A DNA stretch of 64,000 nucleotides from a virus. The DNA is taken from the IMG/VR virus record IMGVR_UViG_3300032163_000001, positions 46,249 through 110,248 of that record. The stretch is one strand, 5' to 3'. This document shows, piece after piece, positions 2,201-60,087 of the stretch (its first letter is position 1; every line of letters starts with the position of its first letter). The notes beneath the pieces were generated by a model that saw only the letters and a program-made list of their open reading frames with translations, made no database searches and was not told the DNA's origin. The translations under genes and the position numbers were made by a program.

Positions 2201-3229
2201 ATGAAAATAGGGATAACGGCTGATTTGCATCTTTCGGGTTTTAGCCAAGATATAGTAGACTCTGCTACTAACTTACCGCAGAGGTTAGCAGAAAAAAAGA
2301 AAGTATGTTACAACATTATTGAGGACATGAAATCCAGAGGTTGTAATATTCTGATTATAGCAGGAGATTTGTTACATAATAAATCAATCATTTATTCAAT
2401 TGCACAATCTGTAATGTTAAATTTTATTAGACGTAATATAGATATAACTTTTATAATTATAGATGGAAATCATGACCTTTCTGGTAAAGGAAAAAATGTT
2501 GTATCATCCTTAGAATGTTTGGATAATGAACCGAACGTTGTTAGAATTAAGAAAGAAGGAACAATTTCAGAACTTAAAGATTTCTTCTTCGTTCCATATT
2601 CAATGGAAATTTCTCAAATAGTTAAGAAGAATAGTTCTCAATATTTAGTTTCTCATTTTGGTTTAAATGAAGCTTTATTAAATTCAGGTTCTAGTATAGT
2701 ATCTGACGTTTCATTAAAAGATTTAACTGGTAGATATAGTCTAGCTTTTTTGGGACACTACCACCTTCCACAATCAATAGAAAGAGGTAATATAAAAGTT
2801 TATGTTCCGGGATCTATATCTCAAACTGACTGGACTGAAAAGAATGAAGATAAAAGGTTTCTAATTTTTGATAGAGAAACAGAAGAAATTGAAAGTATAC
2901 CAACAGTTGGATATAGAAAACATTTCGAGTTAGTTATTACAAATCAAAATAAAATAGAAGTAATTAATCAGGCTAGAGAACTAAAATCAAGAGGAGATTA
3001 TGTTATTTTGAAAAAGGAAGAAGCAGTAGAAACATCTGAAATCTCAAAAGAATTTATAATAATTGATAAAACAAGTAAAGATATTTCAAATCGAGGAATT
3101 TCAACATCAATGTCTGACTTAGAAAAGATTAGGAGATATGAAGAAATTATGAAAGTTGATGAGGGAGATAGAGAAGATGTTGAAAAAGAAGCATTGGATG
3201 TTATACAATATTGTAGTGGAGAAGTTTAG
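2201..3229 (+). CDS. sbcD: SbcD/Mre11-like metallophosphoesterase nuclease
   Basis: Calcineurin-like phosphoesterase motifs DLHL, GDLLH and GNHD. Lies directly upstream of an SbcC/Rad50-like ATPase. Confidence 0.7.
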   Translation: MKIGITADLHLSGFSQDIVDSATNLPQRLAEKKKVCYNIIEDMKSRGCNILIIAGDLLHNKSIIYSIAQSVMLNFIRRNIDITFIIIDGNHDLSGKGKNVVSSLECLDNEPNVVRIKKEGTISELKDFFFVPYSMEISQIVKKNSSQYLVSHFGLNEALLNSGSSIVSDVSLKDLTGRYSLAFLGHYHLPQSIERGNIKVYVPGSISQTDWTEKNEDKRFLIFDRETEEIESIPTVGYRKHFELVITNQNKIEVINQARELKSRGDYVILKKEEAVETSEISKEFIIIDKTSKDISNRGISTSMSDLEKIRRYEEIMKVDEGDREDVEKEALDVIQYCSGEV

Positions 3230-3240
3230 GAGGAGCAATC

Positions 3241-3429
3241 ATGGGATCTGTAAAAGATAAAGAAGTAGGCTTTATAGTTCATACAGTTGAACATAGAGAA
3301 TATTTTGTAAAGAATACTAAGACTTTAGAAGAAGCTGTTCAAGTTGTAAAAGATGTAAATCTCAGTCCTAAAAGTAAGAGAGTAGAATTGATACAATTTG
3401 GAGATTTCGAAATTATTGAAGAGGAGTAG
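3241..3429 (+). CDS. hypothetical small protein
   Basis: 62-aa ORF with RBS GGAGGAG. Confidence 0.35.
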   Translation: MGSVKDKEVGFIVHTVEHREYFVKNTKTLEEAVQVVKDVNLSPKSKRVELIQFGDFEIIEEE

Positions 3430-3431
3430 TT

Positions 3432-3716
3432 ATGAGTTATCCAATGTATGAAATCTATAAATTTTTAAAGAAAAAGAAAGGTTATAAAATAGAAGTAGAG
3501 AGAGAAAATGATAAGATAATATCGATTTATTGTAATCCTAAAGGAAAAATTTTACTAGAAAATTTTGGAGATCATATTCCATGTGTTACAATTTCTTTTG
3601 AACTCGAAAAATTTAAAGTTATTTGGGGAGTAGTAACAGTTGAAAGTGATTATTCAGGAGAAGGTGAATTTGAAGATTATACAAAAGTTATTAAAGATTT
3701 GGAGGAAAACTTGTGA
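3432..3716 (+). CDS. hypothetical small protein
   Basis: 94-aa ORF, start overlaps the previous stop. Confidence 0.35.
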   Translation: MSYPMYEIYKFLKKKKGYKIEVERENDKIISIYCNPKGKILLENFGDHIPCVTISFELEKFKVIWGVVTVESDYSGEGEFEDYTKVIKDLEENL

Positions 3717-5920
3717 GAAATATTGAAATTGATTCGTGGGGTTTTGAGAATTTTTCGTTATTTACTGAACCGATGGAAATAAAAGTAGTTAATGGAAAAA
3801 TCACATTAATAACGGGACCAAATGGTATTGGAAAAACAACAATATTTGATGGTTTATCATACGCGATGCATGGAGTAACTAGTAAGGGTCTTAAAGGTGA
3901 GGATGTAGTAAATGATAGAGTTCTATCTGACTGTTATGCTTGGACTAAATTTAAAGTTAATGAAGATGAATATAAAGTAGATAGGTATTGTAAACATAAG
4001 AAAAATGGAAGTAATGTTATTCTTTACAAGAATGGTATGGATAAACCTATAGCAGTTGGAACAAACGAAGTTAGAGAAGCTGTTGATAAACTGTTTATGC
4101 CTCATAAATTGTTGATGAATATATTATTCTTTTCTCAGAAAGTTAAGACCTTCTTCACAGATCTTCCAGATGAACAACGAAAAGAAATTTTTAGAAAAAT
4201 TCTTTTACTAGATGATTATGTTAATTACTATAAAGAAGTATCTAGAAGAATTAATGAGTTAGAGAAAGAGATTTCTAAAATAAAGAACAATCAAATAGTC
4301 ACAACATCTTTAATTGAAGATTGTATTTTAGAAATTAAGAAAGGAGAAGAACGAAAGAAAGAATATTATGTTAAGAAAGAGAAAGAGATATCTGATATTA
4401 TTGGTAACATAATGACTTCACAAGATAAACTGATTCAATTACAACGCAAGTTGTCAGATATAGAATATGAAGAAGTTCTGCAGAAAAAGTTAGAAGATGT
4501 TAACCGGAAGATTTCAGAAGTAGAAATGAAAAGTAAACTTATTGATAGTGAATTTCAGAAAAAGAAAGATGATATTGCTATAAGAAAAGCTTCTAAAAGA
4601 TCTGAAGTTGAGAATGAAAAACACGGAAAAGAAAAAGAAGTGTTAGCTGAAAAATCGAAGTCTTTAGTAGATCTACAATCAACATATAATAATTTGAAGA
4701 TTTCTTATAACAATAACATTTCTAGTTTAGATCAAGAAATTTCTAAAAAGATTTCTAAAATTAACTCAAATAATAGTTTGGTGAATTTACATTCATCTAG
4801 CAGGATTGAAATATTTGAAAAGGTTTTTTCTAAACCTACATCTATTTGTCCAGTATGTGATAGAGAAATCACGAAAGATGTTGTTGAAAGATTAAGAGAA
4901 AAAATGGCGCAAATAGATTTAGAGATTTCACGTTTAGAAGAAGATACTAAAAATTGTAACTATGATATCCCAGACATTGAGTCTAAGAAAACAAAATTAA
5001 AAGAAGAATTTGATAAAGAGACAAAAGATTATGAAAGAAATGTTAGCGAAGTTGAAATGATAAACAATCGTCTCATTAAAGAACTACAGGATAGAGCAGA
5101 AGGAGCTTTTAAGAAATTAGATAAAATAGAAGAGACTCAAGTTAAAGAGTTAGAAGAAGAAAAAATAAAAGAGAAATCTAACCTTCCTTCTTTAATTTCT
5201 TTATCTGAAGAAAAAGGAAAAGTATTATTAATAGTAGAAGATAGAAAGAAACTAGAGAATGAGATTTCGACTGTTAAATCTAAAATTGAGTCTGAAGATA
5301 ACCTTCTTAAATATAAACAAACAGAAATGTTTGATCAAACTTTAGTGCTTATCCCAAAGAAGAAACTTGAAGATCTTCAGAGTTCTCTTAGTAAACTTTC
5401 TGAAGAAATGATTGTTGTGGAAAAGAAATCTAGGATTCTTAGTTTCTTAAAGAAAGCGTTTTCTCCAACAGGTATTCCAAGTATGTTAATAGATGATTCT
5501 ATTCCATTTATTAATGAAACTGTTTCAAAGTATTTAGACAGTATTTCTAACGGCAGATACATTGTTTCTTTTGATACAACGAAGGAAACAAAGGGTGGAG
5601 ATATAAGAGATAAAATATCGATGAATGTTTTGGATACGGTAACTTTAGCAAATAAAAGAGAAAAACTTTCTGGAGGACAAGTTCGATTAATTGATATTGC
5701 AACAATTTTAACACTGTCTAGACTACAAGAAGTTATGCAAGATGTTAGGATAAATTTACTTTTGTTTGACGAGATTTTTGATAGTCTCGACGACAGCAAC
5801 ATTTCTTATGTTTCTAGAGTTCTAAAAGAAGTTTCGAAGGATAAAGCTATCTTTCTTATTAGTCATAGACATATAGATTTATTAGAAGCAGACGAGATTT
5901 TGAGACTGGAAGGTGGTTAA
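3713..5920 (+). CDS. sbcC: SbcC/Rad50-like SMC-type ATPase
   Basis: Walker A GPNGIGKTT, long coiled coils, central CPVC zinc hook. Signature LSGGQ and Walker B LLLFDE with D-loop. GTG start. Confidence 0.8.
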   Translation: MRNIEIDSWGFENFSLFTEPMEIKVVNGKITLITGPNGIGKTTIFDGLSYAMHGVTSKGLKGEDVVNDRVLSDCYAWTKFKVNEDEYKVDRYCKHKKNGSNVILYKNGMDKPIAVGTNEVREAVDKLFMPHKLLMNILFFSQKVKTFFTDLPDEQRKEIFRKILLLDDYVNYYKEVSRRINELEKEISKIKNNQIVTTSLIEDCILEIKKGEERKKEYYVKKEKEISDIIGNIMTSQDKLIQLQRKLSDIEYEEVLQKKLEDVNRKISEVEMKSKLIDSEFQKKKDDIAIRKASKRSEVENEKHGKEKEVLAEKSKSLVDLQSTYNNLKISYNNNISSLDQEISKKISKINSNNSLVNLHSSSRIEIFEKVFSKPTSICPVCDREITKDVVERLREKMAQIDLEISRLEEDTKNCNYDIPDIESKKTKLKEEFDKETKDYERNVSEVEMINNRLIKELQDRAEGAFKKLDKIEETQVKELEEEKIKEKSNLPSLISLSEEKGKVLLIVEDRKKLENEISTVKSKIESEDNLLKYKQTEMFDQTLVLIPKKKLEDLQSSLSKLSEEMIVVEKKSRILSFLKKAFSPTGIPSMLIDDSIPFINETVSKYLDSISNGRYIVSFDTTKETKGGDIRDKISMNVLDTVTLANKREKLSGGQVRLIDIATILTLSRLQEVMQDVRINLLLFDEIFDSLDDSNISYVSRVLKEVSKDKAIFLISHRHIDLLEADEILRLEGG

Positions 5921-6520
5921 ATGCTATGTGAATATAGTTGTGGAAAGGAAGCAACTCACCAATTCAAAAATGGAAAATGGTGCTGTGAGAAAGTTATTAA
6001 TAAATGCCTTGAATGGAAAAGGAAGAATAAAAATAGTCATATAGGTTTAAAGCACTCAGAGAATTCTAAGAATAAAATTAGATCAGCAAATGAGGGAAAA
6101 CCCAAAACTGAAGAACACTGTAGAAATATAAGTAACACTAGAAAAGAAAAGAAACTCTCAGAAGGAAGAAGTAATCCAATGTTTGGTAGACACCATTCAG
6201 AAGAAACAATTGAGAAAATTCGTAAATCTTTGCTGGAAAAAGTTCAGTCAGAAGAACATAGAGAAAAAAATTCGGGAGAGAATAATTATGGATGGAAAGG
6301 TGGGGGAATTGGATATCTTCATGATAAAGCCAGAAAATTATTTGGAAAAGATAAATGCGAAAAGTGTGGTATTTTTATTGAAGACTATATTAAAGATAGA
6401 ACAGTTAAAAGATTTGATATACATTGTGTTACTAAAGACTATACAATTATGGAAAAATTTAATTGGTTATGTTTATGCAGAAGTTGTCACTGGATAGTAG
6501 AGAAAAGTAGAAAGTCTTAA
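5921..6520 (+). CDS. HNH homing endonuclease with N-terminal Zn finger and NUMOD3-like motif
   Basis: N-terminal CEYSCGKEATHQFKNGKWCC. NPMFGRHHSEETIEKIRKS (NUMOD3-like). C-terminal CEKCG...H...CRSCH (HNH). Confidence 0.7.
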   Translation: MLCEYSCGKEATHQFKNGKWCCEKVINKCLEWKRKNKNSHIGLKHSENSKNKIRSANEGKPKTEEHCRNISNTRKEKKLSEGRSNPMFGRHHSEETIEKIRKSLLEKVQSEEHREKNSGENNYGWKGGGIGYLHDKARKLFGKDKCEKCGIFIEDYIKDRTVKRFDIHCVTKDYTIMEKFNWLCLCRSCHWIVEKSRKS

Positions 6521-6640
6521 GGTTATCTTAAGAAGAAAGGAGAAGGAAATGGACAAGAAGAAGAAATTAGAAATTCTGTCTTTACTTCTTAAAGAATACT
6601 TAGATCACTTACAGAGACTTTTAGATATTGGGAGGTAAAA

Positions 6641-7021
6641 ATGGATACTGAAGTTAAAGAAGAATTTAAACAAGTTTGTGTGTGGACAGGATGTGTTGTT
6701 GGTCCAGATAAAATTAGAGAATTCTGTACGTTTATGCAAGAGCAGTTTAGCGTAAGAGTTAAATATCTTGAAGAAATTAAAACTCAGCCAGATACAGATA
6801 GTAATGGATATCGTGTTCCAGGTACAGGAGGTAGAAATGATTTATTGTTTTCTGTTCATAATGAAGATGCTGGTAAGTTTGCAGTTCCCAGATTAGCGGC
6901 AGGTATTCGTTGGATTGAAGATGTACTTGCAGAATGTAACTATAGATCACCTATCTATCCAAAACGCATATTTGAATATTGTAGTTGGAACAAAGAAAGT
7001 TTATCTCATTTTGGTGATTGA
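6641..7021 (+). CDS. hypothetical protein
   Basis: 126-aa ORF with RBS GGGAGG. Confidence 0.4.
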   Translation: MDTEVKEEFKQVCVWTGCVVGPDKIREFCTFMQEQFSVRVKYLEEIKTQPDTDSNGYRVPGTGGRNDLLFSVHNEDAGKFAVPRLAAGIRWIEDVLAECNYRSPIYPKRIFEYCSWNKESLSHFGD

Positions 7022-7091
7022 GGAGGGTAATACTCTATAGTTAGTTCCATCTATAACTAGAACAAATATTAAAATTACTACGGAGAAAACT

Positions 7092-7979
7092 TTGTATTGT
7101 AAAGTAGATGATTTATATTATTATACAGAAGGTAGTCAAATAGATGTAGAAAAAGGATACGTTTCTTTTATATGTAAACGTTGTAATGATCGTTGTAGAA
7201 AAATTGGTTACCTTTTAGAGTTTAAATCTCTCAAACGATCTATGTTATGTTCTTCTTGTAATAATTCCCAAGTCTCAAAATATCGAAAAGAGACTATGAT
7301 AAAGAACGGTATATATGATAAAAGGTGTAAAGATTTTTCAGAAGTAGGAAAGAAAACTCTTACAAAATTTAGAAGTAAATTAAGTAAAGATCAAATTAGT
7401 GAATTATGTAGTAAAGCTGGTAAAAAGAATTATGAAGTAAGCATCAAAAATAATAGTAAGTTTTTTCAGAATATTTATACGAAAGAATTTTGGAATAAAA
7501 TTAGAGAGAATCCAGAAAAATACCAATTTTATATTTTACATCTTACTAATATATCTCGAAATAATTGGAATAATTATACTCCAGAAGAAAAAAACAATCG
7601 CTTAAAAAAATCATTTAAAAATATATCTAGATCTAAAGTATCTGAAGAATTTAAACAATGGTTAAAACAAAATAATTTATATCAAGGATTTAAAAGTGAA
7701 CAGTGGATAAAGGGTTATAAAGTTGATGAATTATCTGAAGAAAAAAAATTAATAATTGAATTCTATGGAGATATTTATCATTGTAATCCTGTATTATTTA
7801 AAGAAGAAAATCAATATTGTTCTTGGCTTGATAGAACTGTTAAAGAACAATGGGATCGAGATCGTAAAAGAATAGAAGATCTATTAAAATATGGTTATAG
7901 TATTATTATTATTTGGGAATCAGATTATTATAATGATAAAGAGAGATTATTAGAAAGGTTAATAAAGGAGATAAGATGA
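7092..7979 (+). CDS. homing endonuclease, Vsr-like/EDxHD-type nuclease domain with N-terminal Zn fingers
   Basis: C-terminal IIEFYGDIYHCNP...DRDRKRIEDLLKYGYSIIIIWESD resembles the Vsr/DUF559 PD-(D/E)xK fold. CxxC pairs at the N-terminus. TTG start. Confidence 0.5.
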   Translation: MYCKVDDLYYYTEGSQIDVEKGYVSFICKRCNDRCRKIGYLLEFKSLKRSMLCSSCNNSQVSKYRKETMIKNGIYDKRCKDFSEVGKKTLTKFRSKLSKDQISELCSKAGKKNYEVSIKNNSKFFQNIYTKEFWNKIRENPEKYQFYILHLTNISRNNWNNYTPEEKNNRLKKSFKNISRSKVSEEFKQWLKQNNLYQGFKSEQWIKGYKVDELSEEKKLIIEFYGDIYHCNPVLFKEENQYCSWLDRTVKEQWDRDRKRIEDLLKYGYSIIIIWESDYYNDKERLLERLIKEIR

Positions 7980-9046
7980 GTAGTTTGGTTGTTGATGTTA
8001 ATATAGTTGAAGAAATTTTACCCCATCCGAATGCAGATAATTTGGAAATAGTTCATGTAAAAGGTTGGCAAGTCTGTATCCAGAAGGGATCATTTAAATC
8101 TGGGGATTTAGGGGTCTATTTTCCTCCAGATTCGTTGTTAACAGAAGAATTATGTAATAGATTAGGTATATGGAAATACACTTCTAAAGGAAAGATTAAA
8201 GGGATCAGATTAAGGGGCGAACCTTCATATGGACTCTTTATCCCACTATCTGAATTTCCAGAACTAAAAGATTCAAAAGTTGGGGATGACGTAACTCAAT
8301 TACTAGGAGTAGAAAAATGGGAACCGCCCCCCGAATTTGCAACTGGTGATATGGAGGTTTCACATCCATTATTTCACAAGTATACTGATATTGAAAACTA
8401 TGGAAATTTTCCAAATGTATTTGATGATGACGAATTTGTAATACTAACAGAGAAGATCCATGGGTGTAATTCGAGAATAGGACTTGTGGAAAATGAATGG
8501 ATGGCAGGAAGTCACAACGTTAGAAAAAAGATGCCAGATATTTGGGCTGAGAATTTATACTGGTATCCTCTAACATATGCAAAAGGTGACTGTGATAAAG
8601 ATGGACATTCAGACGTTCAGCAAATGTTAATAGCGATGACAGGAGAAATGTACAAAGCAAAATCAGTTATCCTATTTGGAGAGGTTTATGGATGGGTTCA
8701 GAAATTAAGATATGGACATAAACCAGGAAAAATTTCTTTTGTTGCGATTGACTTATCTATTGACGAGAAGTATCTTAGTTGGTTTGAATTTTATGGTATT
8801 ATGAAACTTTTTAACATTCCAATTGTTCCTGTTATAGAAATAGCAAAGTTAGAATATATTAAAGATATTGGTTTAGATAAGTTTGCTAGTGGTAAAACTA
8901 AAATACTAGGTCCTGATGGTAACCCCATAGATCAAATAAGAGAAGGTTTTGTTATGAAACCTGTGAAAGAAAGGAGAGCACCTGACATAGGAAGAGTAAT
9001 TTTGAAAGTTAAAAATATTGACTATGTCTCTGGAAATTATGAGTAA
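7976..9046 (+). CDS. ATP-dependent RNA ligase (Rnl2-like nucleotidyltransferase) with N-terminal tRNA-binding-like OB domain
   Basis: Motif I KIHG, motif IV EGFVMK, motif V-like ILKVK. N-terminal HPNADNL...G...GDLGVYF resembles a tRNA-binding OB fold. Confidence 0.6.
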   Translation: MSSLVVDVNIVEEILPHPNADNLEIVHVKGWQVCIQKGSFKSGDLGVYFPPDSLLTEELCNRLGIWKYTSKGKIKGIRLRGEPSYGLFIPLSEFPELKDSKVGDDVTQLLGVEKWEPPPEFATGDMEVSHPLFHKYTDIENYGNFPNVFDDDEFVILTEKIHGCNSRIGLVENEWMAGSHNVRKKMPDIWAENLYWYPLTYAKGDCDKDGHSDVQQMLIAMTGEMYKAKSVILFGEVYGWVQKLRYGHKPGKISFVAIDLSIDEKYLSWFEFYGIMKLFNIPIVPVIEIAKLEYIKDIGLDKFASGKTKILGPDGNPIDQIREGFVMKPVKERRAPDIGRVILKVKNIDYVSGNYE

Positions 9047-9982: not shown

Positions 9983-10387
9983 ATGTGCAACTTAGTACAC
10001 GAAGAATATAAACCGATTGAAAAATCAGGCTATGCATGGAAACTTTTCTCAAAAAATCTCCATGGAAATTTAGTCCAATTGTTTTCTAGAGAACTGTATA
10101 AGAAAGAAGATTCAGGATGGATTTTCTGGAACGATAGATATGGTTCTTATGGATCTACTGGAGATGGATTTTGTGCTTTTGCAAGCAAAGAAGAAGCAGA
10201 ACGAGCACTTCAAGATTTACAAAGAGGCATAACTGTTGGTGAATATTCAGATGCTACACTTCGAGAAATTCAGTATGAAGGAGGTCTTGCTTTACAAAAG
10301 GAACCTAGAATGGTATGTGGAAAAGTTTATGAAACAATAATAATTAGGAGGTTTAAGATCATTGAACAAGGAGAAGAAAATGGATAA
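9983..10387 (+). CDS. hypothetical protein
   Basis: Internal ATG with a strong RBS (AAAGGAGAG) is preferred over the ATG at 9908 given in the ORF track. Confidence 0.4.
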   Translation: MCNLVHEEYKPIEKSGYAWKLFSKNLHGNLVQLFSRELYKKEDSGWIFWNDRYGSYGSTGDGFCAFASKEEAERALQDLQRGITVGEYSDATLREIQYEGGLALQKEPRMVCGKVYETIIIRRFKIIEQGEENG

Positions 10388-11414
10388 GGTCCATATAGTT
10401 AGCTGGTTGCTAACTCGCAGGTGCAATCTTCACTGTTCATATTGTAGGATTTCTAGAAATTACAAGAAGTTTCCCCAAGCATACCCAAATTTAAAACACT
10501 ATGAACAAGATGAGATGAAAACTGAAGATATAATAGAAGCTCTTAAGAAATTGAAACAACACAATTCAAATGCTTTTCATATCTTCTACGGAGGTGAACC
10601 ACTTCTGAGGACTGATTTACCCCAAATAATTAATTTCTGTAACAAAGAAGAAATTAATTATACTATCATCACTAATAATAGTGATGAAGTACAAGGAGCT
10701 ATTGATGACTTATTTTTGAAGACAGATTACGTCACAGGATTAACTTCGTCAGTAGATCCAATTATAGTATCTGGAGAAAATATAACTACAGATCAGTACA
10801 AGAAAAGTGTTAAAGCTTTAGAAAGGTTTACTAAACTTAGAAGTGTAATTAAAGACTTGGTTGCAGAAATTACAGTTGATCGGGATTCAATTAATTGTTT
10901 GTATGACCTTGTAAAGATGTTAACAGATCTTGGAGTGAATAGTGATATAACAGTTATTGATATTGCTAAATCAGATTTCTATGATTTTTCAAATGTTACA
11001 GATAAGAATATTTTAGTTCCAAAGTCTCCACAAGTTTACGAAATCTTTCATAAGATAATCGATGATAAATTAGATGTTCATATGAAAGGTATCCTTTTAG
11101 ATAAAATATATGAAATATTACCGTCAGAACTAGATTGTAAGATTGAGAAAGATGTTCATAACTTAACAGTAGATGCTGATGGAAGTATTAGATTATGTTT
11201 AAGGATCAGGGGTATTTTTACTCCAGCTCATTTTAATATCGAAAACTTTGTGTTAGATTCTGGAGAACTCCACCCTGGTTTAAAACTTAGTTTAGCAAGA
11301 GATAAGAGAATGAGTTGTAGAAATTGTAACTGGTCGTGTATTATTATGAGTCAAATTATTTCTCATACTGAAAGTTATAATGATTTATTACTTCATACTG
11401 AGAAGAGAAATTAA
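10362..11414 (+). CDS. radical SAM enzyme (possible SPASM-like C-terminal Cys cluster)
   Basis: CNLHCSYC (Cx3Cx2C) near the N-terminus, FYGGEPLL glycine-rich SAM motif, C-terminal CRNCNWSC. Confidence 0.65.
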   Translation: MNKEKKMDKVHIVSWLLTRRCNLHCSYCRISRNYKKFPQAYPNLKHYEQDEMKTEDIIEALKKLKQHNSNAFHIFYGGEPLLRTDLPQIINFCNKEEINYTIITNNSDEVQGAIDDLFLKTDYVTGLTSSVDPIIVSGENITTDQYKKSVKALERFTKLRSVIKDLVAEITVDRDSINCLYDLVKMLTDLGVNSDITVIDIAKSDFYDFSNVTDKNILVPKSPQVYEIFHKIIDDKLDVHMKGILLDKIYEILPSELDCKIEKDVHNLTVDADGSIRLCLRIRGIFTPAHFNIENFVLDSGELHPGLKLSLARDKRMSCRNCNWSCIIMSQIISHTESYNDLLLHTEKRN

Positions 11415-12021: not shown

Positions 12022-12071
12022 TAAGAGACAATATGATTAATAAAGAATCTGTGAAAAAAGGAGGAATAGAA

Positions 12072-12602
12072 ATGAGAAAAATTCTTGAAATACTACTGGT
12101 TGTAATGTTTAGTATTTCTGCTATTGTTAAAAAACATAGACAACTTTTTGTACTTGTATTAGGTATTTTGATCGGAATTTTTATTTACAATTTGTATATT
12201 AATAGTAAGGTTGTAAAAATAGAACCAGTTAAAAAAGAAGTGGTACAACCAAAAGTACAACCAGTAATTAAACAACCAGAAGTTACAAAACCAAAAGAAG
12301 TATCTAAACCGAAGATAAAACCAACTATTTTGAAAGCTACTGAAAAAAATGGAGTGTGGAGTATAAAGTTAAATAAAGCTGCAGTTGATATGGTTAAAAA
12401 TAAAGGTTTAAAAGTTAGACTTCAAATTGGATATTGTTACTATGAATCAGATCAGTTACAAGGTGATACTATTCAAATAGAACCTGAATGGCATCCACCT
12501 TTATCTCAAAATAAAGTGGTTGCTGGTCTTTGGATGCCAAAAACTGGTTCTTCACATGAAATAGGAGATGGTTATTATTTGATGTCTGAGAGACTACCTT
12601 AG
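12072..12602 (+). CDS. membrane protein with Pro/Lys-rich repeats
   Basis: TM helix followed by PKVQPVIKQPEVTKPKEVSKPKIKP repeats. ATG with RBS AAGGAGGAATAG preferred over 12033. Confidence 0.45.
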   Translation: MRKILEILLVVMFSISAIVKKHRQLFVLVLGILIGIFIYNLYINSKVVKIEPVKKEVVQPKVQPVIKQPEVTKPKEVSKPKIKPTILKATEKNGVWSIKLNKAAVDMVKNKGLKVRLQIGYCYYESDQLQGDTIQIEPEWHPPLSQNKVVAGLWMPKTGSSHEIGDGYYLMSERLP

Positions 12603-14223: not shown

Positions 14224-17001
14224 ATGGATGGTTTGGATCAAGTAATATCTGTAATGCCAGGTCCAGTTAGAGAATATCTAAGAGAGCTTGGAATCTCTGA
14301 AACAGAAGAGGAAGATTTACGTGAGGAAGAAGCACCACGAGCAGTAGATCAAAATGGAGAAGAAATAAAAGAAGTAAAAGAAATAGAAGAAGAACTTTGC
14401 GAGAGGTATTCTCATCAATTAGTTATTGACGAAAGATTTACAAGCTTAGTTCAAGTACACTCACCAACCGGAATAAGATCAGCTTATAAACCAGTTAAGA
14501 AAATCTTCACTGCATTTACAAAAGATATTTCGTCTTATATAGGAGGAAATTTAGAGACTTTTGAGTTGCTACCAAGAAACATAAGATTTTATGTTTCAAG
14601 AAGAGATATTAACTTATTCATAATAGAAGACGAACCATGTATTAGAACAATTAGAACGAATCAAAGATTTGAGAGTACAATAGAAAATTTGAGACTAACA
14701 GGAAAGTCGAAAGAATTTGGATACGAAAATTTCTTACAAGATATGAGTTTTGTAGAAGAGAGAAAAGCAAGTTTACGATCAGATGAAAGTGAAAGAGAAC
14801 GTGATACACTTGTTTCTGGAGAGACTATATATAGATTTAATTTATCTTTTCCTTATATAGTTTATATAGTTTCACAATTTGAAACAACTTATTTTGGCTT
14901 ATCAATCTATTATAGAACAAGTCCACTAACAGATTTAAAAGATTTACTTTTTAAGTGTAATCTTCTTAATATTGATGGTCGTGATGTATGTTGTTTAGGT
15001 ACTTTTAGTGTTCCAGCAAAGTTACCAATTAGTGAGAAAGTATCAATAGTAATTGGTCAGTTTTGGAACAGTATATTTAATACAGAGATTACAGAAAATT
15101 TTAGACTATATAGAGATAATCCACATCTTTGCACATTTTTACATTGGCAACACTATAGTCAAACTGATCCTTCGTTTATTTTAAGTGAGAATTTTATTCC
15201 AGTTTCTGAATCTCATCCGGATTTAAAATCTGTTATAGAATCTAAATTCTCAAGTTCGATGAACGATGAAGAAATAACTCATAATTCTATTGTTAGACTT
15301 TTACATTCTGATTGTTTACCAGCACTAGGAAAAGTTCAACGAAATTTGTTAGTTAGTGCATCACAAATGATAGTAGATGCAGATAATGGAATTACCTTAG
15401 ATTGTGGAGAAGAAATAGTCGTTGACGAAAAGAAATACTATATAGTTAACTTTTTAGCAAGTGGTGTGGGATCAGTAGTACAGCAAATAATAACCGAAGA
15501 TGAAGATCATAATATGAAGAAGTTTAAAGTAACTAGAAAACTAGTAGAAGAATTGATTAAAGGTATTAGAAGTAAAGATCATTTAGAATCTTGTGAAGTT
15601 TCAGGAAAACAAGTAAAGACTGGTGATTTAATTAATTTCCCAGAAGAAAAGCGTTTTAGTACTATTTCTAAACTTCTTAAGGATAGAGATGGAACAGTAC
15701 TTGCTAAATGTGGAAGAGACTTCTATATTCTTGACAACATTAAGTTTAATACAATGACTGAAAATGAAATAACAATTAATGGTGTAAAGCTTCAAAAGAA
15801 AGAAAAATATTTTATTTCTAGAGCGCGGATATATCTGCCAAATCTTCTTGAGGGAGAATTTAATTTAAGAACTTTTGAAGGACTAGGAAATGCTGGAGTT
15901 GATGAAATGGTTTTTAAATTTTCTGGTAACTATAATTTTAGCTTAGATGAAATGTATCGGTACCAATTTTTCAATGAAAGTTCAGTAGAAGAGTTATTAA
16001 TAAGTAGATATGGAATCAAATTATTTGAAAAAGGTTATAGAATTAAAAACAGTTGTTTATATGTTTCTGATCGTGGCGCTACATTAAGACCGGCTACAGT
16101 AAGAGAACAATCTGAAAGGATTGTACAAGAAAAGAGGTTATTCATTCCAAGTTTTGATTTTGATATAGACTTTAAAATTGGAGATAAAGTAATCGTAGCG
16201 AACTGGTCAAAACCTGAATCAATTTGTTGCATCCAAACTATAACAGATTTTGAGAAGTCAGATCAAAATGTAGTTAGTATAGTTACTGTTGATGATTCTG
16301 GAAATGTAACAAAAACAAAGTATATAGATTTTAATCGATCAACTATATTTACTGGGAGTATCAGAAAAATATCATCGGAGTTTGCTGGAATAAAGTCTGG
16401 TTTTAAAATGATTGCGAAAACGAAAGTTAGTAATTTCCTAAAGAAAGATTGTCACCAAGTGATTGGATTTTTAACAGACACTCCAAACGGTATTCCATTA
16501 ATGTTGTGTTCAAACCTATCTACACTTTGGGCTACAGAAGACAATCTTAATAATTTTAACTTTTTAGATCCTTCAAGTAGAACTTTTCTTAAATTTAGAG
16601 TTTCTCCTTTGGACATTAGTAATATCAAAATACAACCGGGTGATTTGGTCTGTTCAATGAAGTCTGCTAATTGTTGCACGACTAATATTTTCTTTGCATT
16701 GAATAGAATTTTCAAGACAGTAGCTGTTTTGAGGTGTCAAGCTAATTATAGTTTCTGTAGGTGTCCAGAAATTGCGAGAGCAAGTCATTCTCTATATGGA
16801 ATACCAAATCCAAGATTTACTATCAAACGTGGATTAGAAGAAGAAGGATTTGAAAGGTTAGATGTAGTTCCAAGTTTTTATAATACATATATAAAGAATA
16901 ATAGTGAACATAGAAATCTAATGCCTATTTGGGTAAGAAAGGAGGAAATATTTAATGTTCCCAATTTACTTAATGGACAAGAAAAAAGTTGTGGTAAATG
17001 A
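14224..17001 (+). CDS. large hypothetical protein (925 aa), immediately upstream of and overlapping the JAB gene
   Basis: RBS AAGGAGGTAAAG. Acidic N-terminus. No motif I can name. Confidence 0.5.
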   Translation: MDGLDQVISVMPGPVREYLRELGISETEEEDLREEEAPRAVDQNGEEIKEVKEIEEELCERYSHQLVIDERFTSLVQVHSPTGIRSAYKPVKKIFTAFTKDISSYIGGNLETFELLPRNIRFYVSRRDINLFIIEDEPCIRTIRTNQRFESTIENLRLTGKSKEFGYENFLQDMSFVEERKASLRSDESERERDTLVSGETIYRFNLSFPYIVYIVSQFETTYFGLSIYYRTSPLTDLKDLLFKCNLLNIDGRDVCCLGTFSVPAKLPISEKVSIVIGQFWNSIFNTEITENFRLYRDNPHLCTFLHWQHYSQTDPSFILSENFIPVSESHPDLKSVIESKFSSSMNDEEITHNSIVRLLHSDCLPALGKVQRNLLVSASQMIVDADNGITLDCGEEIVVDEKKYYIVNFLASGVGSVVQQIITEDEDHNMKKFKVTRKLVEELIKGIRSKDHLESCEVSGKQVKTGDLINFPEEKRFSTISKLLKDRDGTVLAKCGRDFYILDNIKFNTMTENEITINGVKLQKKEKYFISRARIYLPNLLEGEFNLRTFEGLGNAGVDEMVFKFSGNYNFSLDEMYRYQFFNESSVEELLISRYGIKLFEKGYRIKNSCLYVSDRGATLRPATVREQSERIVQEKRLFIPSFDFDIDFKIGDKVIVANWSKPESICCIQTITDFEKSDQNVVSIVTVDDSGNVTKTKYIDFNRSTIFTGSIRKISSEFAGIKSGFKMIAKTKVSNFLKKDCHQVIGFLTDTPNGIPLMLCSNLSTLWATEDNLNNFNFLDPSSRTFLKFRVSPLDISNIKIQPGDLVCSMKSANCCTTNIFFALNRIFKTVAVLRCQANYSFCRCPEIARASHSLYGIPNPRFTIKRGLEEEGFERLDVVPSFYNTYIKNNSEHRNLMPIWVRKEEIFNVPNLLNGQEKSCGK

Positions 17002-17899
17002 TGACATTTACTATTTAGTTGCAAAAAATGGAGTCTTTGTAAAGAAGAAACTAGGTCTTATTGAAAGTTTAACTCCAGTTGATGGAATACCATTTTTAGC
17101 GGGAACTGCTGTTCCTTATGCAAAAATGACAATTCCAAAAATTCCGAAAGAGATATTTTGTAAGATCTTATCTTTCTTTAGAAAAATTTATAGTTTATAT
17201 GAATCAGAATGTGAAGTATTTCTTCTTTATAATAGTTCAAAACAGAAGTTTAAAATAAGAGTTCCATATCAAAAAGTTTCGTATGCTGGTTGTGAAGCTG
17301 TAAGGATGGGGTCTCCAAAAGACTACGCAATAATTTGCTCCATCCATAGTCATTCAAATTTTTCTGCTTTTCATTCTGGGACAGATATTGATGATGAGGA
17401 ACATTTTGAAGGACTACATATTACGATCGGATATGTACCTGATCTAGAATTTAGTGCAGTCGCTTCTATTGTTTCTAACAAAAAAAGATTTAAAGTTAAT
17501 CCATTAGATTATATTGAAGGTTTAGTTCAAACATCTAATCAACGACGAGCTTTATATGCAGTATCTGGTTCGGATCAAATTGAGTTTGATCCAGAATGGC
17601 TGAAATTTGTTGAAAGAAAGTATCCAATGTTTGTACGTAACCAATTAGGATCACCATTTTATAGTTATGGACAATTTACATCAATTATGGATATTAAAGA
17701 TCTAATTAGCGATGTAAAAAATGAAAAAGGTACAAAAGTTAAAACAGCGACTTATAGACAGAATGATCCATGTTTAGTATGTCCATTTAAGAAAGAAACT
17801 CCTGAAGATGAGAAACTACTGAAAGAAAAATTTAGAGTAACTCCGGAAGAAGAACTTACTATAGATGAAGATTTATTTCCGGAGTATTATGGGATGTAA
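16955..17899 (+). CDS. JAB/MPN+ (JAMM) metallopeptidase
   Basis: ECEVFLLY (conserved Glu) followed by HSHSNFSAFHSGTDID, an exact HxHx7Sx2D JAMM motif. RBS AAGGAGGAAATA. Confidence 0.7.
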   Translation: MFPIYLMDKKKVVVNDDIYYLVAKNGVFVKKKLGLIESLTPVDGIPFLAGTAVPYAKMTIPKIPKEIFCKILSFFRKIYSLYESECEVFLLYNSSKQKFKIRVPYQKVSYAGCEAVRMGSPKDYAIICSIHSHSNFSAFHSGTDIDDEEHFEGLHITIGYVPDLEFSAVASIVSNKKRFKVNPLDYIEGLVQTSNQRRALYAVSGSDQIEFDPEWLKFVERKYPMFVRNQLGSPFYSYGQFTSIMDIKDLISDVKNEKGTKVKTATYRQNDPCLVCPFKKETPEDEKLLKEKFRVTPEEELTIDEDLFPEYYGM

Positions 17900-17900
17900 A

Positions 17901-18566
17901 ATGATTATCTATAAGGTCCAAAACAAAGTTAATGGTAAGATTTATATTGGACAAACTAAGTTTACGTTAGAAGAGAGAATTTTATACCATTTAAAAGTCG
18001 GAGATAGTCCAGCTTTTCATAATTCGATTAAAAAATATGGAATAGAAAATTTTGAAATTTCTATTATAGATTCAGCAAAAACTAAAGAAGAACTTAATGA
18101 CAAAGAAAAATACTGGATTAAGTTTTATGATTCTAATAATCGTATAAAAGGTTACAATTTGACAGATGGAGGTGATGGATTTAGCGGTTACGAATTTTCT
18201 GGAGAAAATAATCCAATGTACGGAAAACATCATTCAGAAGAAACTAAAGAAAATATTAGAAAAAGTAGACTTGGAAAACGTTTGCCTGATGAAGTAAAAG
18301 AGAAAATAAGGAGATCTATGACTGGAAAGAAGTTTCCAGAACATTCAAACATGATGAAAGGAGAAAATAACCCAGCGAAAAGATTAGAAGTAAGAGACAA
18401 AATAACTAAAGCTAAAACTGGAAAGTCAAATACGAAGATTGTAGGAGAGAATAATCCAACTAAAAGACCAGAAGTAAGGAAAAAAATTAGTGAATCATTA
18501 AAAGGAAAACCTTCTGGAACTAAAGGGAGACATTGGAAATGGAGACAAAAACTCAAAGGATTGTAA
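17901..18566 (+). CDS. GIY-YIG homing endonuclease with NUMOD3 repeats
   Basis: MIIYKVQNKVNGKIYIGQT. NPMYGKHHSEETKENIRKS plus further basic repeats. Begins 2 nt after the JAB stop and overlaps the E1 start. Confidence 0.75.
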   Translation: MIIYKVQNKVNGKIYIGQTKFTLEERILYHLKVGDSPAFHNSIKKYGIENFEISIIDSAKTKEELNDKEKYWIKFYDSNNRIKGYNLTDGGDGFSGYEFSGENNPMYGKHHSEETKENIRKSRLGKRLPDEVKEKIRRSMTGKKFPEHSNMMKGENNPAKRLEVRDKITKAKTGKSNTKIVGENNPTKRPEVRKKISESLKGKPSGTKGRHWKWRQKLKGL

Positions 18567-19264
18567 TTTGCGGACTGGGAGGAATCGGTTCTATACTTTC
18601 AGAACATGTATCAAGATTTTTAAACTATAATAAATCGTCAATATTTGAGGTATTATTAGTTGATGGGGATAAGTATAAACCAAAAAATCTAGAAAGACAA
18701 GACTTTATTACATTTGGAAATAAAGCAGAAATAAAGAAAAATGAACTGGGTAGTAAGTTCCCAAATATGATATTTGAAAGTTTCCCAAAATTTGTAAATA
18801 AAGAAGTAGTTAAAGATATAATTAAAGAAAAAGATATAGTTCTTCTATGTGTAGATAATCATAAAACAAGAAAAATCGTTTCAGATTATTGTTCTGATAT
18901 AAATGATATAGTTTTAATTTCTGGCGGAAACGATTTATTAAATGGCAATATTCAATTGTTTGTGAAAAAAAATGGAGAGAAACTACTTCCAAATTTGACA
19001 GATTATCATAGAGAAATACAAAATCCAGAAGATAAATCTCCAGAAGAAAAAAGTTGTCAAGAGTTAGCAGAAAGTGAACCACAATTGTATTTTACAAATT
19101 TAATGGTCGCGTCTTTTATGTGTGCATCTCTCTACAACGTTCTAGACGAAAGGTACACTTATTCAGAAGTTTATTTTGATATTACAACTATGAAAGCAGA
19201 CTCTAAAATTAGAAAAGTAAAAGAACAGAAGAAAAACTTTATCGAAGCTAGCGTTAGAATATAG
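18533..19264 (+). CDS. ThiF/MoeB-type E1-like adenylyltransferase
   Basis: RIVICGLGGIGS...LLVDGDKYKPKNLERQ (Rossmann fold plus NLxRQ arginine finger). DIVLLCVDNHKTR matches the E1 D-x-D-N motif. Confidence 0.7.
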   Translation: MEMETKTQRIVICGLGGIGSILSEHVSRFLNYNKSSIFEVLLVDGDKYKPKNLERQDFITFGNKAEIKKNELGSKFPNMIFESFPKFVNKEVVKDIIKEKDIVLLCVDNHKTRKIVSDYCSDINDIVLISGGNDLLNGNIQLFVKKNGEKLLPNLTDYHREIQNPEDKSPEEKSCQELAESEPQLYFTNLMVASFMCASLYNVLDERYTYSEVYFDITTMKADSKIRKVKEQKKNFIEASVRI

Positions 19265-19347
19265 TACTAAAATATCAAGGAAAAGGAGGTGAAAAATAGT
19301 TTCTATTTATCTTTCTCAAAAATTCTTAATAAAAGGAGATTATTGTT

Positions 19348-19773
19348 ATGGCATCTTATGAAGAAAGAACTGTTGCAGAACTTAGGGGAATTTGTCGTGA
19401 AAAAGGAATTCCTGGAATGTCGAAGGCTAGAAAAGATGATATTATAGAAGCTTTGAGAAGTCGCAAAGGATCATCTACACCTCGAGACAAAAAAGAAAAA
19501 ATTATAACTGAATTACATTCTTCTATCTTTAGATCTGATGGTCGTATTAGTAAGGTTGAAACTACAGTTCATGTGTCTGCTGGTGCAGCAAGTTTTAATC
19601 AACCTTTAGTTGGAAAGAATGTTGGACAGGCTGCAGAAATTTACAAACATATACTTAATGTTGATCCGCTAGAGATTAATGCTCTAGTTAATGGTAGAGC
19701 TGTCGAATCAGATTATGTTTTGAGATCTGGAGATAACCTTGAGTTTCTGAAACCTGCTTCAAGAAAAGGATAG
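19348..19773 (+). CDS. candidate ubiquitin-like modifier: Rho-N/SAP-like N-domain plus ThiS/MoaD-like beta-grasp ending in Gly
   Basis: N-terminal TVAELRGICREKGIPGMSKARKDDIIEAL (Rho_N-like). C-terminal INALVNGRAVESDYVLRSGDNLEFLKPASRKG* follows the ThiS pattern (N..V.R...L.DGD.I), with a terminal Gly. Confidence 0.45.
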   Translation: MASYEERTVAELRGICREKGIPGMSKARKDDIIEALRSRKGSSTPRDKKEKIITELHSSIFRSDGRISKVETTVHVSAGAASFNQPLVGKNVGQAAEIYKHILNVDPLEINALVNGRAVESDYVLRSGDNLEFLKPASRKG

Positions 19774-19786
19774 AAAAATAGTAAAA

Positions 19787-19850
19787 AAGGCTTGGAATTT
19801 TTTAGAAAGTATGTTATAATACTTTTTATAAGTTCCAAGCCTTCTTTTTC
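19787..19850 (+). terminator. 11-bp perfect inverted repeat (AAGGCTTGGAA/TTCCAAGCCTT) with 35-nt loop and T-tract
   Basis: Arms at 19787-19797 and 19833-19843, followed by CTTTTTC. Lies between the Ubl and the second E1-like gene. Confidence 0.4.
19792..19820 (+). promoter_or_regulatory. sigma-A-like promoter: TTGGAA, 17-nt spacer, extended -10 TGTTATAAT
   Basis: -35 element at 19792-19797, TG at 19812-19813, TATAAT at 19815-19820. Sits inside the loop of the inverted repeat above. Confidence 0.35.
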
Positions 19851-19866
19851 TAGAAAGGAGGTAGGA

Positions 19867-20763
19867 GTGAGAAAAGTTTCTTCAGTTGCAGTAGTTGGTC
19901 TAGGTAGTTTAGGTAGTTTTCTTTCTGATAGTTTATCAAAGGTTGAAACAATCGAAAAATTAGTTCTTATAGATTATGATACAGTTCAAGAAAAGAACTT
20001 GATCAACTCTGTTTATAGAAAAATAGACGTTGAAAGATTTAAAGTAAATGCTATGAGAGATATTATATTATCTAACAACCCTTGTCTGAAAGTATTGGTT
20101 GTTCAAGATAAGTATGATAATTTGAGAAGAACTTCTTCAAGGTGGTTACTTGTTCGTCCTGATGTAGATTTAGTAGTAGATTGTAGAGATTTTACATATG
20201 ATAGAACTGATGAAGTAGATGTTAGAATGTATATAACTTCTAGATACTTAGTATTAGATTGTAGAAAAGATGTTAGTTACAATAAACACTATGAAGGAAT
20301 GTACACTTCTCAACTAACTAAGACAGATTTAAGAAATGCAGCGCTTACAACTTGCTTATTAATTCAGAATGGATTGATTTTTGATTTAATTGAAAAGCAG
20401 TTAGTGCACAAAGTTGAACTAGATTATATTTGTAGGAAGACATCAGAAGTAATCCAAAATAAAGGAGATATGATTTTAGATTTAAAAGAAGATACTTCTA
20501 GCTTCTTAAACTTACCAGAATGTTCAGATCGTATTTTGGATGTGAACAAGAAACATAAGTTAACAATGTACTTTGGAGATAAAGAAAATTCTTTAATTTG
20601 GAAAGAAGTTCCACGAAATTCTCTACTAAATATTGAGGATGTTATTTCGTGCTTACGATCTATTATTAAACTTCCTTTTGTCTTTAACTATTATATTATT
20701 CTTCTAAAAAATAATTCCGATGGCTTCTATATTGAACTCATCCCAGAAACTGGAGCTGCCTAA
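19867..20763 (+). CDS. second ThiF/E1-like protein, probably degenerate (arginine finger missing)
   Basis: VAVVGLGSLGS...LIDYDTVQEKNLINSVY has NLINS in place of NLxRQ. DLVVDCRDFTYDRT is retained. GTG start with RBS AAAGGAGGTAGGA. Confidence 0.6.
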   Translation: MRKVSSVAVVGLGSLGSFLSDSLSKVETIEKLVLIDYDTVQEKNLINSVYRKIDVERFKVNAMRDIILSNNPCLKVLVVQDKYDNLRRTSSRWLLVRPDVDLVVDCRDFTYDRTDEVDVRMYITSRYLVLDCRKDVSYNKHYEGMYTSQLTKTDLRNAALTTCLLIQNGLIFDLIEKQLVHKVELDYICRKTSEVIQNKGDMILDLKEDTSSFLNLPECSDRILDVNKKHKLTMYFGDKENSLIWKEVPRNSLLNIEDVISCLRSIIKLPFVFNYYIILLKNNSDGFYIELIPETGAA

Positions 20764-20821
20764 AGATGTACTAAAATTTCTAAAAGAAGAAGTTGGGGAT
20801 AGTAATGGAAAGGAGGAGATT

Positions 20822-21175
20822 ATGATACACATCTTGAGAAAAAACATTGAGAAGTCTCCATTAGTTCCTGATACAATAATTCATAAAGATAAAGTCTTTA
20901 ATATTACATCTGTTGATCCAGAGTTTATAATAAATAAATATGAACTAATTTTTAACGATAATATTTTGAAGGGTGTTAGATTAGTTAATAGTAGACATCC
21001 AAACTGTGACCCAGAGAATGGAATGTTTTGTTTACCAGAAGGAATAAAAGATAGTATTTTTACTAAAGAAATGTATGAAAGATTAAAGTATATTATGAGA
21101 ACTTTTAATCTCGACAACTGTTATTTTATGCCATGGGATCGGTGTACATATACAAGGAGGTTTTTAGATGGATGA
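20822..21175 (+). CDS. UBC-like E2 conjugating enzyme (small)
   Basis: SRHPNCDPENGMFCLPEGI has the HPN-x(8-9)-C-L spacing of E2 active sites (compare HPNINSNGSICL). ATG with RBS AAGGAGGAG, preferred over the 20720 start in the track. Confidence 0.55.
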   Translation: MIHILRKNIEKSPLVPDTIIHKDKVFNITSVDPEFIINKYELIFNDNILKGVRLVNSRHPNCDPENGMFCLPEGIKDSIFTKEMYERLKYIMRTFNLDNCYFMPWDRCTYTRRFLDG

Positions 21176-59182: not shown

Positions 59183-59204
59183 AGTCTTTCTCCTCTAATT
59201 AAAC

Positions 59205-60014: not shown

Positions 60015-60087
60015 ATTATGTCTCCCTTAAAGTAATTCATCAAACTATATGAGGAACTACTAACTTAAATTATTCTTATTTGCAGAA

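Follow-up and report, generated by a model that had tools for sequence, protein, structure and literature searches.

The 64,000-nt stretch analysed here (positions 46,249–110,248 of IMG/VR virus record IMGVR_UViG_3300032163_000001; hereafter the window) carries nine freestanding homing endonuclease genes (HEGs): three of the GIY-YIG, two of a divergent HNH and four of a Vsr-like type. Their combined length of 6387 nt amounts to 10.0% of the window, and all nine open reading frames (ORFs) are intact. With a probability of roughly 85%, we read them as selfish elements inserted into the genome of a divergent T4-like phage and associated with an old, portable zinc module. What the sequences show is the domain architectures and family membership, intact ORFs, insertion points with presence/absence polymorphism, and hot spots occupied by differing families. 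Named throughout by their lower coordinate in the window, the nine genes are as follows (aa, amino acids; HMM, hidden Markov model):

5921–6520, + strand: divergent HNH HEG, 199 aa; NUMOD3 30.8 bits; PHROG 314/655 'homing endonuclease'
7092–7979, + strand: Vsr-like HEG, 295 aa, TTG start; DUF559 23.8 bits (cut-off 20.6), MTES_1575 31.5 bits
11416–12021, + strand: GIY-YIG HEG, after a radical-SAM gene; PHROG 314 at E 1e-37
17901–18566, + strand: GIY-YIG HEG with NUMOD3, between a JAB gene and a ThiF/E1-like gene
39080–39541, + strand: HEG with a 5921-type HNH domain but no zinc module, 153 aa, paralogue of 5921; hnhD HMM E 1e-45
41320–42192, + strand: Vsr-like (DUF559/EDxHD-type) HEG with DUF7487 repeats, directly upstream of the large terminase gene
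53125–54003, − strand: Vsr-like HEG, 292 aa, with zinc module, helical NUMOD3-like repeats and the motif NPDF...IIEFFGYRH; profile A1
56636–57316, − strand: Vsr-like HEG with zinc module, 226 aa, paralogue of 53125, between the 57342 ORF and a gp25-like baseplate gene
62614–63345, − strand: GIY-YIG HEG with four NUMOD3 repeats; GIY-YIG 33.8 bits (cut-off 22.6), NUMOD3 55.8 bits

HEG census and identity of the phage

An initial annotation made from the DNA alone had proposed at least 11 HEGs, six of them Vsr-like. We translated the ten ORFs that it named or implied, all of which are present where it placed them, and scanned the products against Pfam and PHROGs. The count came down to nine HEGs, with four Vsr-like members (7092, 41320, 53125 and 56636). 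Six-frame phmmer searches with each protein and five family HMMs run over all six frames returned no HEGs beyond these nine, and Pfam scans detected no HEG among the other window ORFs of at least 50 aa. ORFs 39557, 54021 and 12033 were considered as possible HEG fragments and rejected, being unsupported by the phmmer, family-HMM and Pfam searches. What the annotation had said of the overall picture was borne out: the load is high, the genes are freestanding and sit between core genes or overlap their ends, and the Pfam, PHROG and profile assignments place them in three catalytic families with interchangeable modules. For comparison, T4 devotes 11% of its coding potential to its 15 HEGs (PMC2988022).

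The window is part of a metagenomic contig of ~185.6 kb (185,628 bp), identified through an exact match of the 5921 protein and concordant gene calls. It is AT-rich (~30% GC) and densely coding. A megablast search of 9 kb against 50,697 GenBank phage records found no close relative at the DNA level. The large terminase (42176–43804) is 24–29% identical to terminases of T4-like phages, with Flavobacterium phage immuto and Microcystis phage Mel-JY01 as best matches, and Pfam recognises gp47/gp46-like recombination nucleases, an RNA ligase, gp25-like and T4 baseplate proteins and a VanY-containing tail protein. Judged by these genes, the window phage is an uncultured, very divergent T4-like giant phage.

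Filled and empty insertion sites

The initial annotation had suggested comparison with relatives lacking each insert. Such empty sites were found in related contigs for eight of the nine HEGs (62614 being the exception), and for 5921 and 7092 the junctions could be resolved to the base. Between these two HEGs lies a further gene:

6641–7021, + strand: conserved non-nuclease ORF, 126 aa, between two HEGs and outside both mobile cassettes (ORF6641)

Two close relatives, L046 (4.4 kb) and L047, were found via contigs carrying ORF6641 homologues, and a more distant one, L044, via a metagenome scan; when the gp46-like, RNA-ligase and gp47-like proteins were used to scan IMG/VR, no relatives of the 5921–7979 region came up, and exact-sequence look-ups of the gp25-like and JAB proteins gave no match. 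Both L046 and L047 show the gene order gp47, gp46, ORF6641, RNA ligase, with neither 5921 nor 7092. Across the two relatives, nucleotide identity to the window is 96–97% in the gp47-like and ORF6641 segments and ~86–89% in the gp46-like gene; for L046 the values are 96.9% (gp47-like), 86% (gp46-like) and 96.4% (ORF6641 region). The ORF6641 protein of HEG-free L046 is 95% identical in amino acid sequence and is encoded directly between gp46 and the RNA ligase. Against this near-isogenic background, nt 5905–6511 and 7033–7975 of the window have no counterpart in L046. The same two HEGs are also missing from L044 (70% aa identity in gp46).

At the left junction, the window gp46 ends in a diverged tail (…EADEILRLEGG*), followed immediately by the start codon of 5921. 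The original gp46 end of the relative, AAGTCTTGAGGTTATCTTAA, persists after the HEG as AAGTCTTAAGGTTATCTTAA, where it forms the last codons and stop of 5921. At the second site, 13 nt separate the ORF6641 stop from the ATG of the RNA ligase in L046. The window carries the 7092 cassette at this point; the cassette closes with a ribosome-binding site of its own for the ligase (AAGGAG) and overlaps the ligase start through ATGA. Beside 7092, the first 49 residues of the ligase are 75% identical to those of L046, compared with 95–97% aa identity upstream, a drop that would be expected from co-conversion or from target-site divergence at an HEG boundary. The arrangement points to two independent insertions, in which the HNH gene 5921 would have entered the last ~25 nt of the gp46-like (Rad50/SbcC) gene and the Vsr-like gene 7092 the 13-nt spacer between ORF6641 and the ligase start codon.

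ORF6641 itself has at least 357 homologues in metagenomes (50–66% identity), some on contigs of 200–300 kb, and matches no Pfam, PHROG or NCBIfam family; it appears as a conserved protein of huge phages without a family assignment. Between the 5921 cassette and ORF6641 lies a 29-aa ORF with a good ribosome-binding site (6549–6638, MDKKKKLEILSLLLKEYLDHLQRLLDIGR), whose first ~50 nt align with L046, inside a stretch that is 96% identical to it. A scan of 5600–8300 for promoters and terminators found such sites no more frequent than in shuffled sequence. A little upstream, the gap between the gp47-like and gp46-like genes (3179–3478) is ~30% identical to L046 at the DNA level, against 95–99% on the gp47 side and ~71–81% just downstream; the window has two small ORFs here (3241–3429 and 3432–3716) and L046 one.

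The terminase region could be compared with 27 IMG/VR loci (L001–L027) that have the same gene order and 49–57% identical terminases. In most of them the homologues of 38031, 40018 and the terminase are adjacent, and since these flanking genes abut, 39080 (with ORF 39557) and 41320 are insertions. The site upstream of the terminase holds a gene with two zinc modules and an HNH domain in L020 and a GIY-YIG/NUMOD3 gene in L013, and 41320-like genes occur downstream of the terminase in L020 and L021. In the baseplate region, 56636 is absent from 16 of 16 loci (L028–L043), with its flanking genes within ~60 bp of each other; one of these 56636-free loci encodes a T4-type baseplate protein that is 80% identical to the 57538–58332 product. 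The site of 53125 (with ORF 54021) is empty in most of the same loci, and L043 has a different gene there, with two zinc modules and a DUF559 domain. An in-situ exchange of the nuclease domain at this site was considered and rejected: the L043 gene belongs to a separate lineage (best match P0008, 44%) and is no closer to 53125 than the family background. We read it, from these comparisons, as a probable independent occupancy of a hot spot.

The gap between the JAB and ThiF genes, where the window has 17901, is too short for an HEG in at least nine loci (L017, L019, L022, L023, L038–40, L051 and L052). Likewise, 11416 (with ORF 12033) is absent from L051 and L056, where the radical-SAM homologue abuts the 12735 homologue. 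At 62614 the gene order breaks in relatives.

A further hot spot is seen in the relatives between the homologues of 62080–62595 and 61038–61754, which encloses HEGs of the zinc-module or DUF559 type (L031, 1159–2055; L036, 2744–3679; L043, 7742–8956), where the window has a small ORF (61841–62062). The extra ORFs beside three of the HEGs (12033–12602, 39557–39907 and 54021–54440) are also absent in relatives and match no family; they may be HEG cargo or independent accessory genes at hot spots.

These patterns also bear on the possibility that some or all of the nucleases have been domesticated for phage exclusion, host DNA breakdown, packaging or the amplification of anti-defence loci. All nine ORFs are intact, the catalytic-motif residues checked in 5921, 7092 and 53125 are retained, and HEGs adjoin terminase, baseplate and recombination genes; moreover, T4-type Seg and Mob enzymes bring about marker exclusion (PMC2988022), and anti-defence loci are amplified with the help of SegB (PMC13096335). 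Nevertheless, relatives that keep the gene order do without eight of the nine genes, and the Vsr-like gene beside the terminase is missing from most relatives, so that it is not a packaging factor. We consider domestication improbable.

Proposed mechanism

On the preferred reading, as inserted selfish elements, each protein couples a DNA-binding stretch, loose and extended and made of a zinc ribbon, of NUMOD3 helices or of the two together, to a single nuclease domain of the GIY-YIG, HNH or Vsr-like type. Zinc ribbon and NUMOD3 would provide long, loose DNA contacts, and the nuclease domain local specificity. By analogy with the T4 Seg and Mob enzymes, Hef and I-Bth0305I (PMC2988022, PMC3239194), the enzyme would cleave a co-infecting relative's HEG-free allele close to the point of insertion, and recombinational repair would then copy the HEG, together with flanking markers, into the cut genome. 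We infer both steps, cutting and copying, from that analogy.

Catalytic domains of the nine enzymes

The four Vsr-like enzymes fall into three sub-types, of which 7092 is nearer to Vsr proper, and 53125/56636 and 41320 are nearer to I-Bth0305I. In 7092, an N-terminal zinc module of the form CxxC...CxxC (C28, C31, C53, C56) precedes a C-terminal nuclease domain (~aa 170–295) with the signature D212...IIEFYGDIYHCNP...RDRKR...IIWE. Its relatives number 2869 at E ≤ 1e-3 among 50% cluster representatives. A profile of its family (A3, 40 members) matches E. coli Vsr (PDB 1cw0) at E 1.1e-6 over 119 residues; 28 of the 40 members match MTES_1575 and 11 match DUF559, and residues D212, E223, G226, D227, H230 and D257 are invariant or nearly so.

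For 53125, DUF559 stays below threshold (13.5 bits), as does NUMOD3. The profile A1, built from 53125, 56636 and 26 full-length metagenomic homologues, in which NPDF...IIEFFGxYWH is near-invariant, picks up 3r3p, the PDB entry for the I-Bth0305I catalytic domain, with E 2.7e-6, and E. coli Vsr with E ~0.06. Residues D218, E229, G232 and H235 are invariant or nearly so across this family, and the catalytic residues of the 53125 and 7092 families align with D51 and the FWH motif of Vsr. In an AlphaFold2 model computed from A1, the C-terminal nuclease of 53125 is predicted with a local confidence score (pLDDT) above 90, and the top Foldseek matches are 3r3p_B (template-modelling score 0.72 on the target), 1cw0 and 1vsr, each at a probability of 1.00. 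Its relationship to 56636 (BLASTP among window ORFs, E 2e-19) extends over the full length, and that to 7092 (E 5e-5) over the C-terminal part; 56636 is also matched by the vsrA HMM (E 1e-46). Lastly, 41320 reaches 41.6 bits with DUF559 and 51.4 bits with DUF7487, belongs to PHROG 3339 ('homing endonuclease') and matches 3r3p at E 0.004.

Through DUF559, the profile matches to 3r3p and Vsr, and the predicted fold of 53125, the EF.G..H domains of these genes could be connected to the Vsr fold, as the initial annotation had proposed. By sequence profile and model, the four are assigned to the known EDxHD homing endonuclease family (Taylor et al. 2011, PMC3239194), of which Hef, a freestanding enzyme of the T4 type, is also a member.

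The two remaining non-GIY-YIG genes, 5921 and 39080, share their C-terminal domain (BLASTP E 4e-22). In 5921, an N-terminal zinc ribbon with four to five cysteines (aa 1–33, nt 5921–6019) is followed by NUMOD3 repeats (~aa 40–110) and the nuclease domain (~aa 120–199; CEKCG...DIHC...NWLCLCRSCH). Pfam detects NUMOD3 as the sole domain of 5921 and nothing in 39080. When isolated, the C-terminal domain of 5921 matches PF01844-bearing metagenomic proteins (P0004, E 8e-7; P0016, E 4e-7; P0125, E 1e-3), and its alignment retains the CxxC, His, Asn and CxxCH elements, with H168, N181 and C189–H190 fitting the motif. The best PDB matches of the domain profile are McrA, the HNH of IscB and the GVE2 HNH enzyme (E 0.008–0.06). 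The AlphaFold2 model of 5921 has an overall pLDDT of 82, with 89–96 in the HNH domain, and its best Foldseek matches are mostly HNH enzymes (Cap5, GVE2 HNH, McrA), at weak E values of 0.2–0.5 and probabilities of up to 0.95; PacI ranks lower (E ~4). The assignment of both genes to HNH in the initial annotation stands insofar as their C-terminal domains are paralogous and homologous to the HNH of PF01844-bearing proteins, and falls short at a direct Pfam HNH match. With moderate confidence, based on these sequence relationships, we regard 5921 and 39080 as divergent HNH enzymes.

The deviant motif raises the question of whether some copies are decaying, inactive remnants, with the 5921/39080 type, in which Cys stands in for the second His of 'HH', as the main candidate. 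The failure of Pfam to recognise an HNH domain would fit such decay, as would the lack of a zinc module in 39080 and the complete absence of the His in protein P0011. On the other hand, both ORFs are full length, the predicted HNH domain of 5921 folds confidently, and the His, Asn and final Cys-His are kept across 5921, 39080, P0002 and P0122 at 43–48% identity to 5921 (38–59% in pairwise BLASTP), conservation that points to selection on this domain. Decay is accordingly rated unlikely, if somewhat less so than domestication.

All three GIY-YIG genes named by the initial annotation were recovered, along with their NUMOD3, through Pfam and PHROG 314 ('homing endonuclease'). For 17901, the scores are 40.7 bits with GIY-YIG (PF01541; cut-off 22.6) and 51.1 bits with NUMOD3; 11416 scores 20.7 bits with GIY-YIG, slightly below the 22.6 cut-off, and is a paralogue of 17901 and 62614. 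The occurrence of NUMOD3 in both GIY-YIG and HNH proteins was likewise upheld by the Pfam match in 5921, and BLASTP connects 17901 with 5921 in the NUMOD3 region (E 1e-6) and with 41320 in the repeat region (E 2e-8).

Several observations weigh against the reading of the window as a collection of nine mobile homing endonuclease genes. Neither PF01844 nor PF13392 is matched in 5921 or 39080 by Pfam scan, even at E ≤ 1; the fold and profile matches that link them to HNH enzymes are weak (E 0.008–0.5); and both carry His-Cys in place of the canonical His-His of HNH, which makes their catalytic competence uncertain. In addition, 56636 has no Pfam nuclease match of its own and is assigned via its paralogue and the family profile. 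HEG density is 1.41 per 10 kb in the window versus 0.10 per 10 kb in relatives (7 HEG ORFs in ~700 kb of related loci, same HMMs), a contrast that is overstated, because the HMMs derive from the window's own families and missed two GIY-YIG genes in L013. Finally, homing is deduced from anatomy and presence/absence rather than from enzyme activity, a cleavage site or gene conversion.

A zinc module shared by two nuclease folds

A common N-terminal module in 5921, 53125 and 56636, noted in the initial annotation, was confirmed: it aligns significantly by BLASTP between 5921 and 56636 (E 1.8e-10) and between 5921 and 53125 (E 1.5e-5), and a local HMM detects it in all three proteins (E 1e-14 to 1e-20). 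The consensus is (L/I)C-E-Y-x-C-G-x-E-A-x2-Q-F-K-N-G-K-W-C-C-x6-C, with C-x3-C-G-x-E-A-x2-Q-F-K-N-G-K-W-C-C-x6-C as an alternative pattern, and the models of 5921 and 53125 predict a small beta-rich zinc ribbon (pLDDT 91–95). No Pfam or NCBIfam model matches the module, and no paper was found in a literature search for its peptide.

Searches with 5921 and 53125 retrieved ~140 proteins, of which 115–120 carry the module at the N-terminus, in one to five tandem copies according to a family-HMM census of these homologues. In that census, whose sample is biased by the retrieval route, its fusion partners were canonical HNH (56 proteins), 53125-type Vsr-like (32), DUF559-type (26) and 5921-type HNH (4) nucleases. 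Among the 50,697 phage records, the module consensus matched two uncultured huge phages and, weakly, one Aeromonas phage, and the whole 53125 protein had no match in GenBank phage records.

The initial annotation had taken the shared module as a sign of active domain swapping among the homing endonucleases of this phage, that is, of recent and ongoing exchange within the genome in which 5921 would have received its zinc module from 53125 or 56636, or passed it on to one of them. One module in three proteins with two unrelated nuclease folds is suggestive of such exchange, recombination between HEGs is documented in Vibrio phages (PMC10055350), and short DNA matches between the modules do exist, the longest being 57 nt at 84%, with another of 60 nt at 77%. 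However, over 30 aa the module of 5921 and that of 56636 show 63% identity, which is at or below the median identity of 60–67% (best 70–80%) between window modules and 113 unrelated metagenomic homologues; as a pair they rank 17th for 5921 and 75th for 56636. The modules share no long near-identical DNA tracts, and each window HEG has closer full-length relatives outside the window than inside. Because the window modules are no closer to each other than to unrelated homologues, recent in-genome exchange is very unlikely, and the claim of active swapping was not sustained. On these sequence grounds the module is better described as an old, portable DNA-binding module of a wider endonuclease pool. 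That phage HEGs are built from modules and exchange domains, repeated zinc-finger DNA-binding domains among them, is itself documented (PMC10055350).

The module is almost confined to uncultured huge phages and has nuclease partners of at least four types, from two unrelated folds. Tentatively, and at slightly less than even odds, it may represent an undescribed nuclease-associated DNA-binding zinc ribbon, effectively a fifth NUMOD (for the NUMOD concept, see PMC3239194). If so, the zinc module and the His-Cys HNH variant would mark a distinct, uncharacterised homing endonuclease pool, in which target specificity might depend on the combination of modules. A profile of the module would improve the annotation of huge phages, because this un-modelled element is joined to HNH and to Vsr-like nucleases across hundreds of metagenomic proteins.

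Comparison with known homing endonucleases

The closest overall parallel is the set of Seg (GIY-YIG) and Mob (HNH) enzymes of T4. In both cases intergenic HEGs lie between conserved genes of a T4-like phage, are absent in relatives, fall into the GIY-YIG and the HNH families with NUMOD-type DNA-binding parts, and reach a similar load (10% of the window versus 11% in T4; PMC2988022). The window differs in that its HNH and Vsr-like enzymes have a C-terminal nuclease preceded by N-terminal DNA-binding modules, and in that four of its nine HEGs are Vsr-like, a type T4 itself lacks; its terminase is only ~24–29% identical to those of cultured T4-like phages. With I-Bth0305I and the EDxHD family, including Hef (PMC3239194), the Vsr-like genes share a C-terminal Vsr-like catalytic domain after N-terminal NUMOD-type regions, and PDB 3r3p and Vsr are recovered both with window profiles and with the predicted fold. 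I-Bth0305I, however, is encoded in a group I intron and uses NUMOD2 and a helix-turn-helix, whereas the window genes are freestanding and use zinc ribbons and NUMOD3.

I-TevI (GIY-YIG, zinc-finger linker, NUMOD3 helix and helix-turn-helix) offers a similar 'beads on a string' design, with zinc finger and NUMOD3 flanking a small nuclease, but the domain order is reversed in 5921, 53125 and 56636, where the zinc module is terminal, can be present in up to five repeats, and has a presumed DNA-binding role. The T5orf172 HEGs of ICP1 and other Vibrio phages (PMC10055350) likewise combine repeated zinc-finger DNA-binding domains with domain exchange over evolution and lie at boundaries of changing sequence identity between related phages; there, the nuclease is T5orf172 and the zinc domains are CapR, DUF723 and DUF4397, in contrast to a window module without a Pfam model. 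Among GenBank phage records, tblastn showed 41320 to resemble F-LimIII of Dickeya phage LIMEstone1, and relatives of 41320 and 7092 also include 'VSR endonuclease' genes of Tenacibaculum phage PTm1 and Lak megaphages, at identities of 28–42% over part of the protein only.

Precedents exist for all three catalytic families, for the freestanding lifestyle, and for NUMOD modules and the shuffling of domains. Novelty lies in the individual members, in the zinc module without a model and the combinations it enters, in the His-Cys form of HNH and in a well-resolved pair of filled and empty alleles. Outside the T-even coliphages, the window phage adds a second clear case of a T4-like phage whose HEG load makes it an outlier within its own clade. 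With filled and empty sites available in near-isogenic form, the target sites of two enzymes not yet characterised would become directly testable. The remaining biology is as expected, with selfish nuclease genes in intergenic hot spots.

Other genes in the window

At 16955–21175 (also 14224–17001), a gene with a JAB domain is grouped with two ThiF/E1-like genes and a small gene (19348–19773), and the order of JAB, ThiF and the small gene is kept in many related phage loci; the cluster may be a conserved phage-encoded ubiquitin-like conjugation module. By eye, the C-terminus of the small protein (…VNGRAVESDYVLRSGDNLEFLKPASRKG) looks ThiS/ubiquitin-like, a reading that gained no support from a PDB sequence search.

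The window also encodes unsplit multisubunit RNA polymerase subunits beta' (903 aa, 22004–24715) and beta (1029 aa, 25061–28150), which here accompany T4-like packaging and baseplate genes in one phage; the better-known multisubunit polymerases of phages are divided among several genes. An SPFH/Band-7 protein (28698–30041) and a PspA/IM30 protein (32491–33168, E 3e-41), both membrane-remodelling or stress proteins, are encoded close together. A FolE2-type GTP cyclohydrolase I (33943–34785, E 2e-58) and the radical-SAM enzyme (10362–11414) could, as a guess, belong to a deazaguanine-type modified-base pathway.

On the minus strand, 58370–61005 comprises three tandem paralogues, 37–42% identical, with Cys-rich helical C-termini, likewise found in 55108–55671. 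Their copy number varies among relatives, from none in L029 and one in L028 to four or five in L037.

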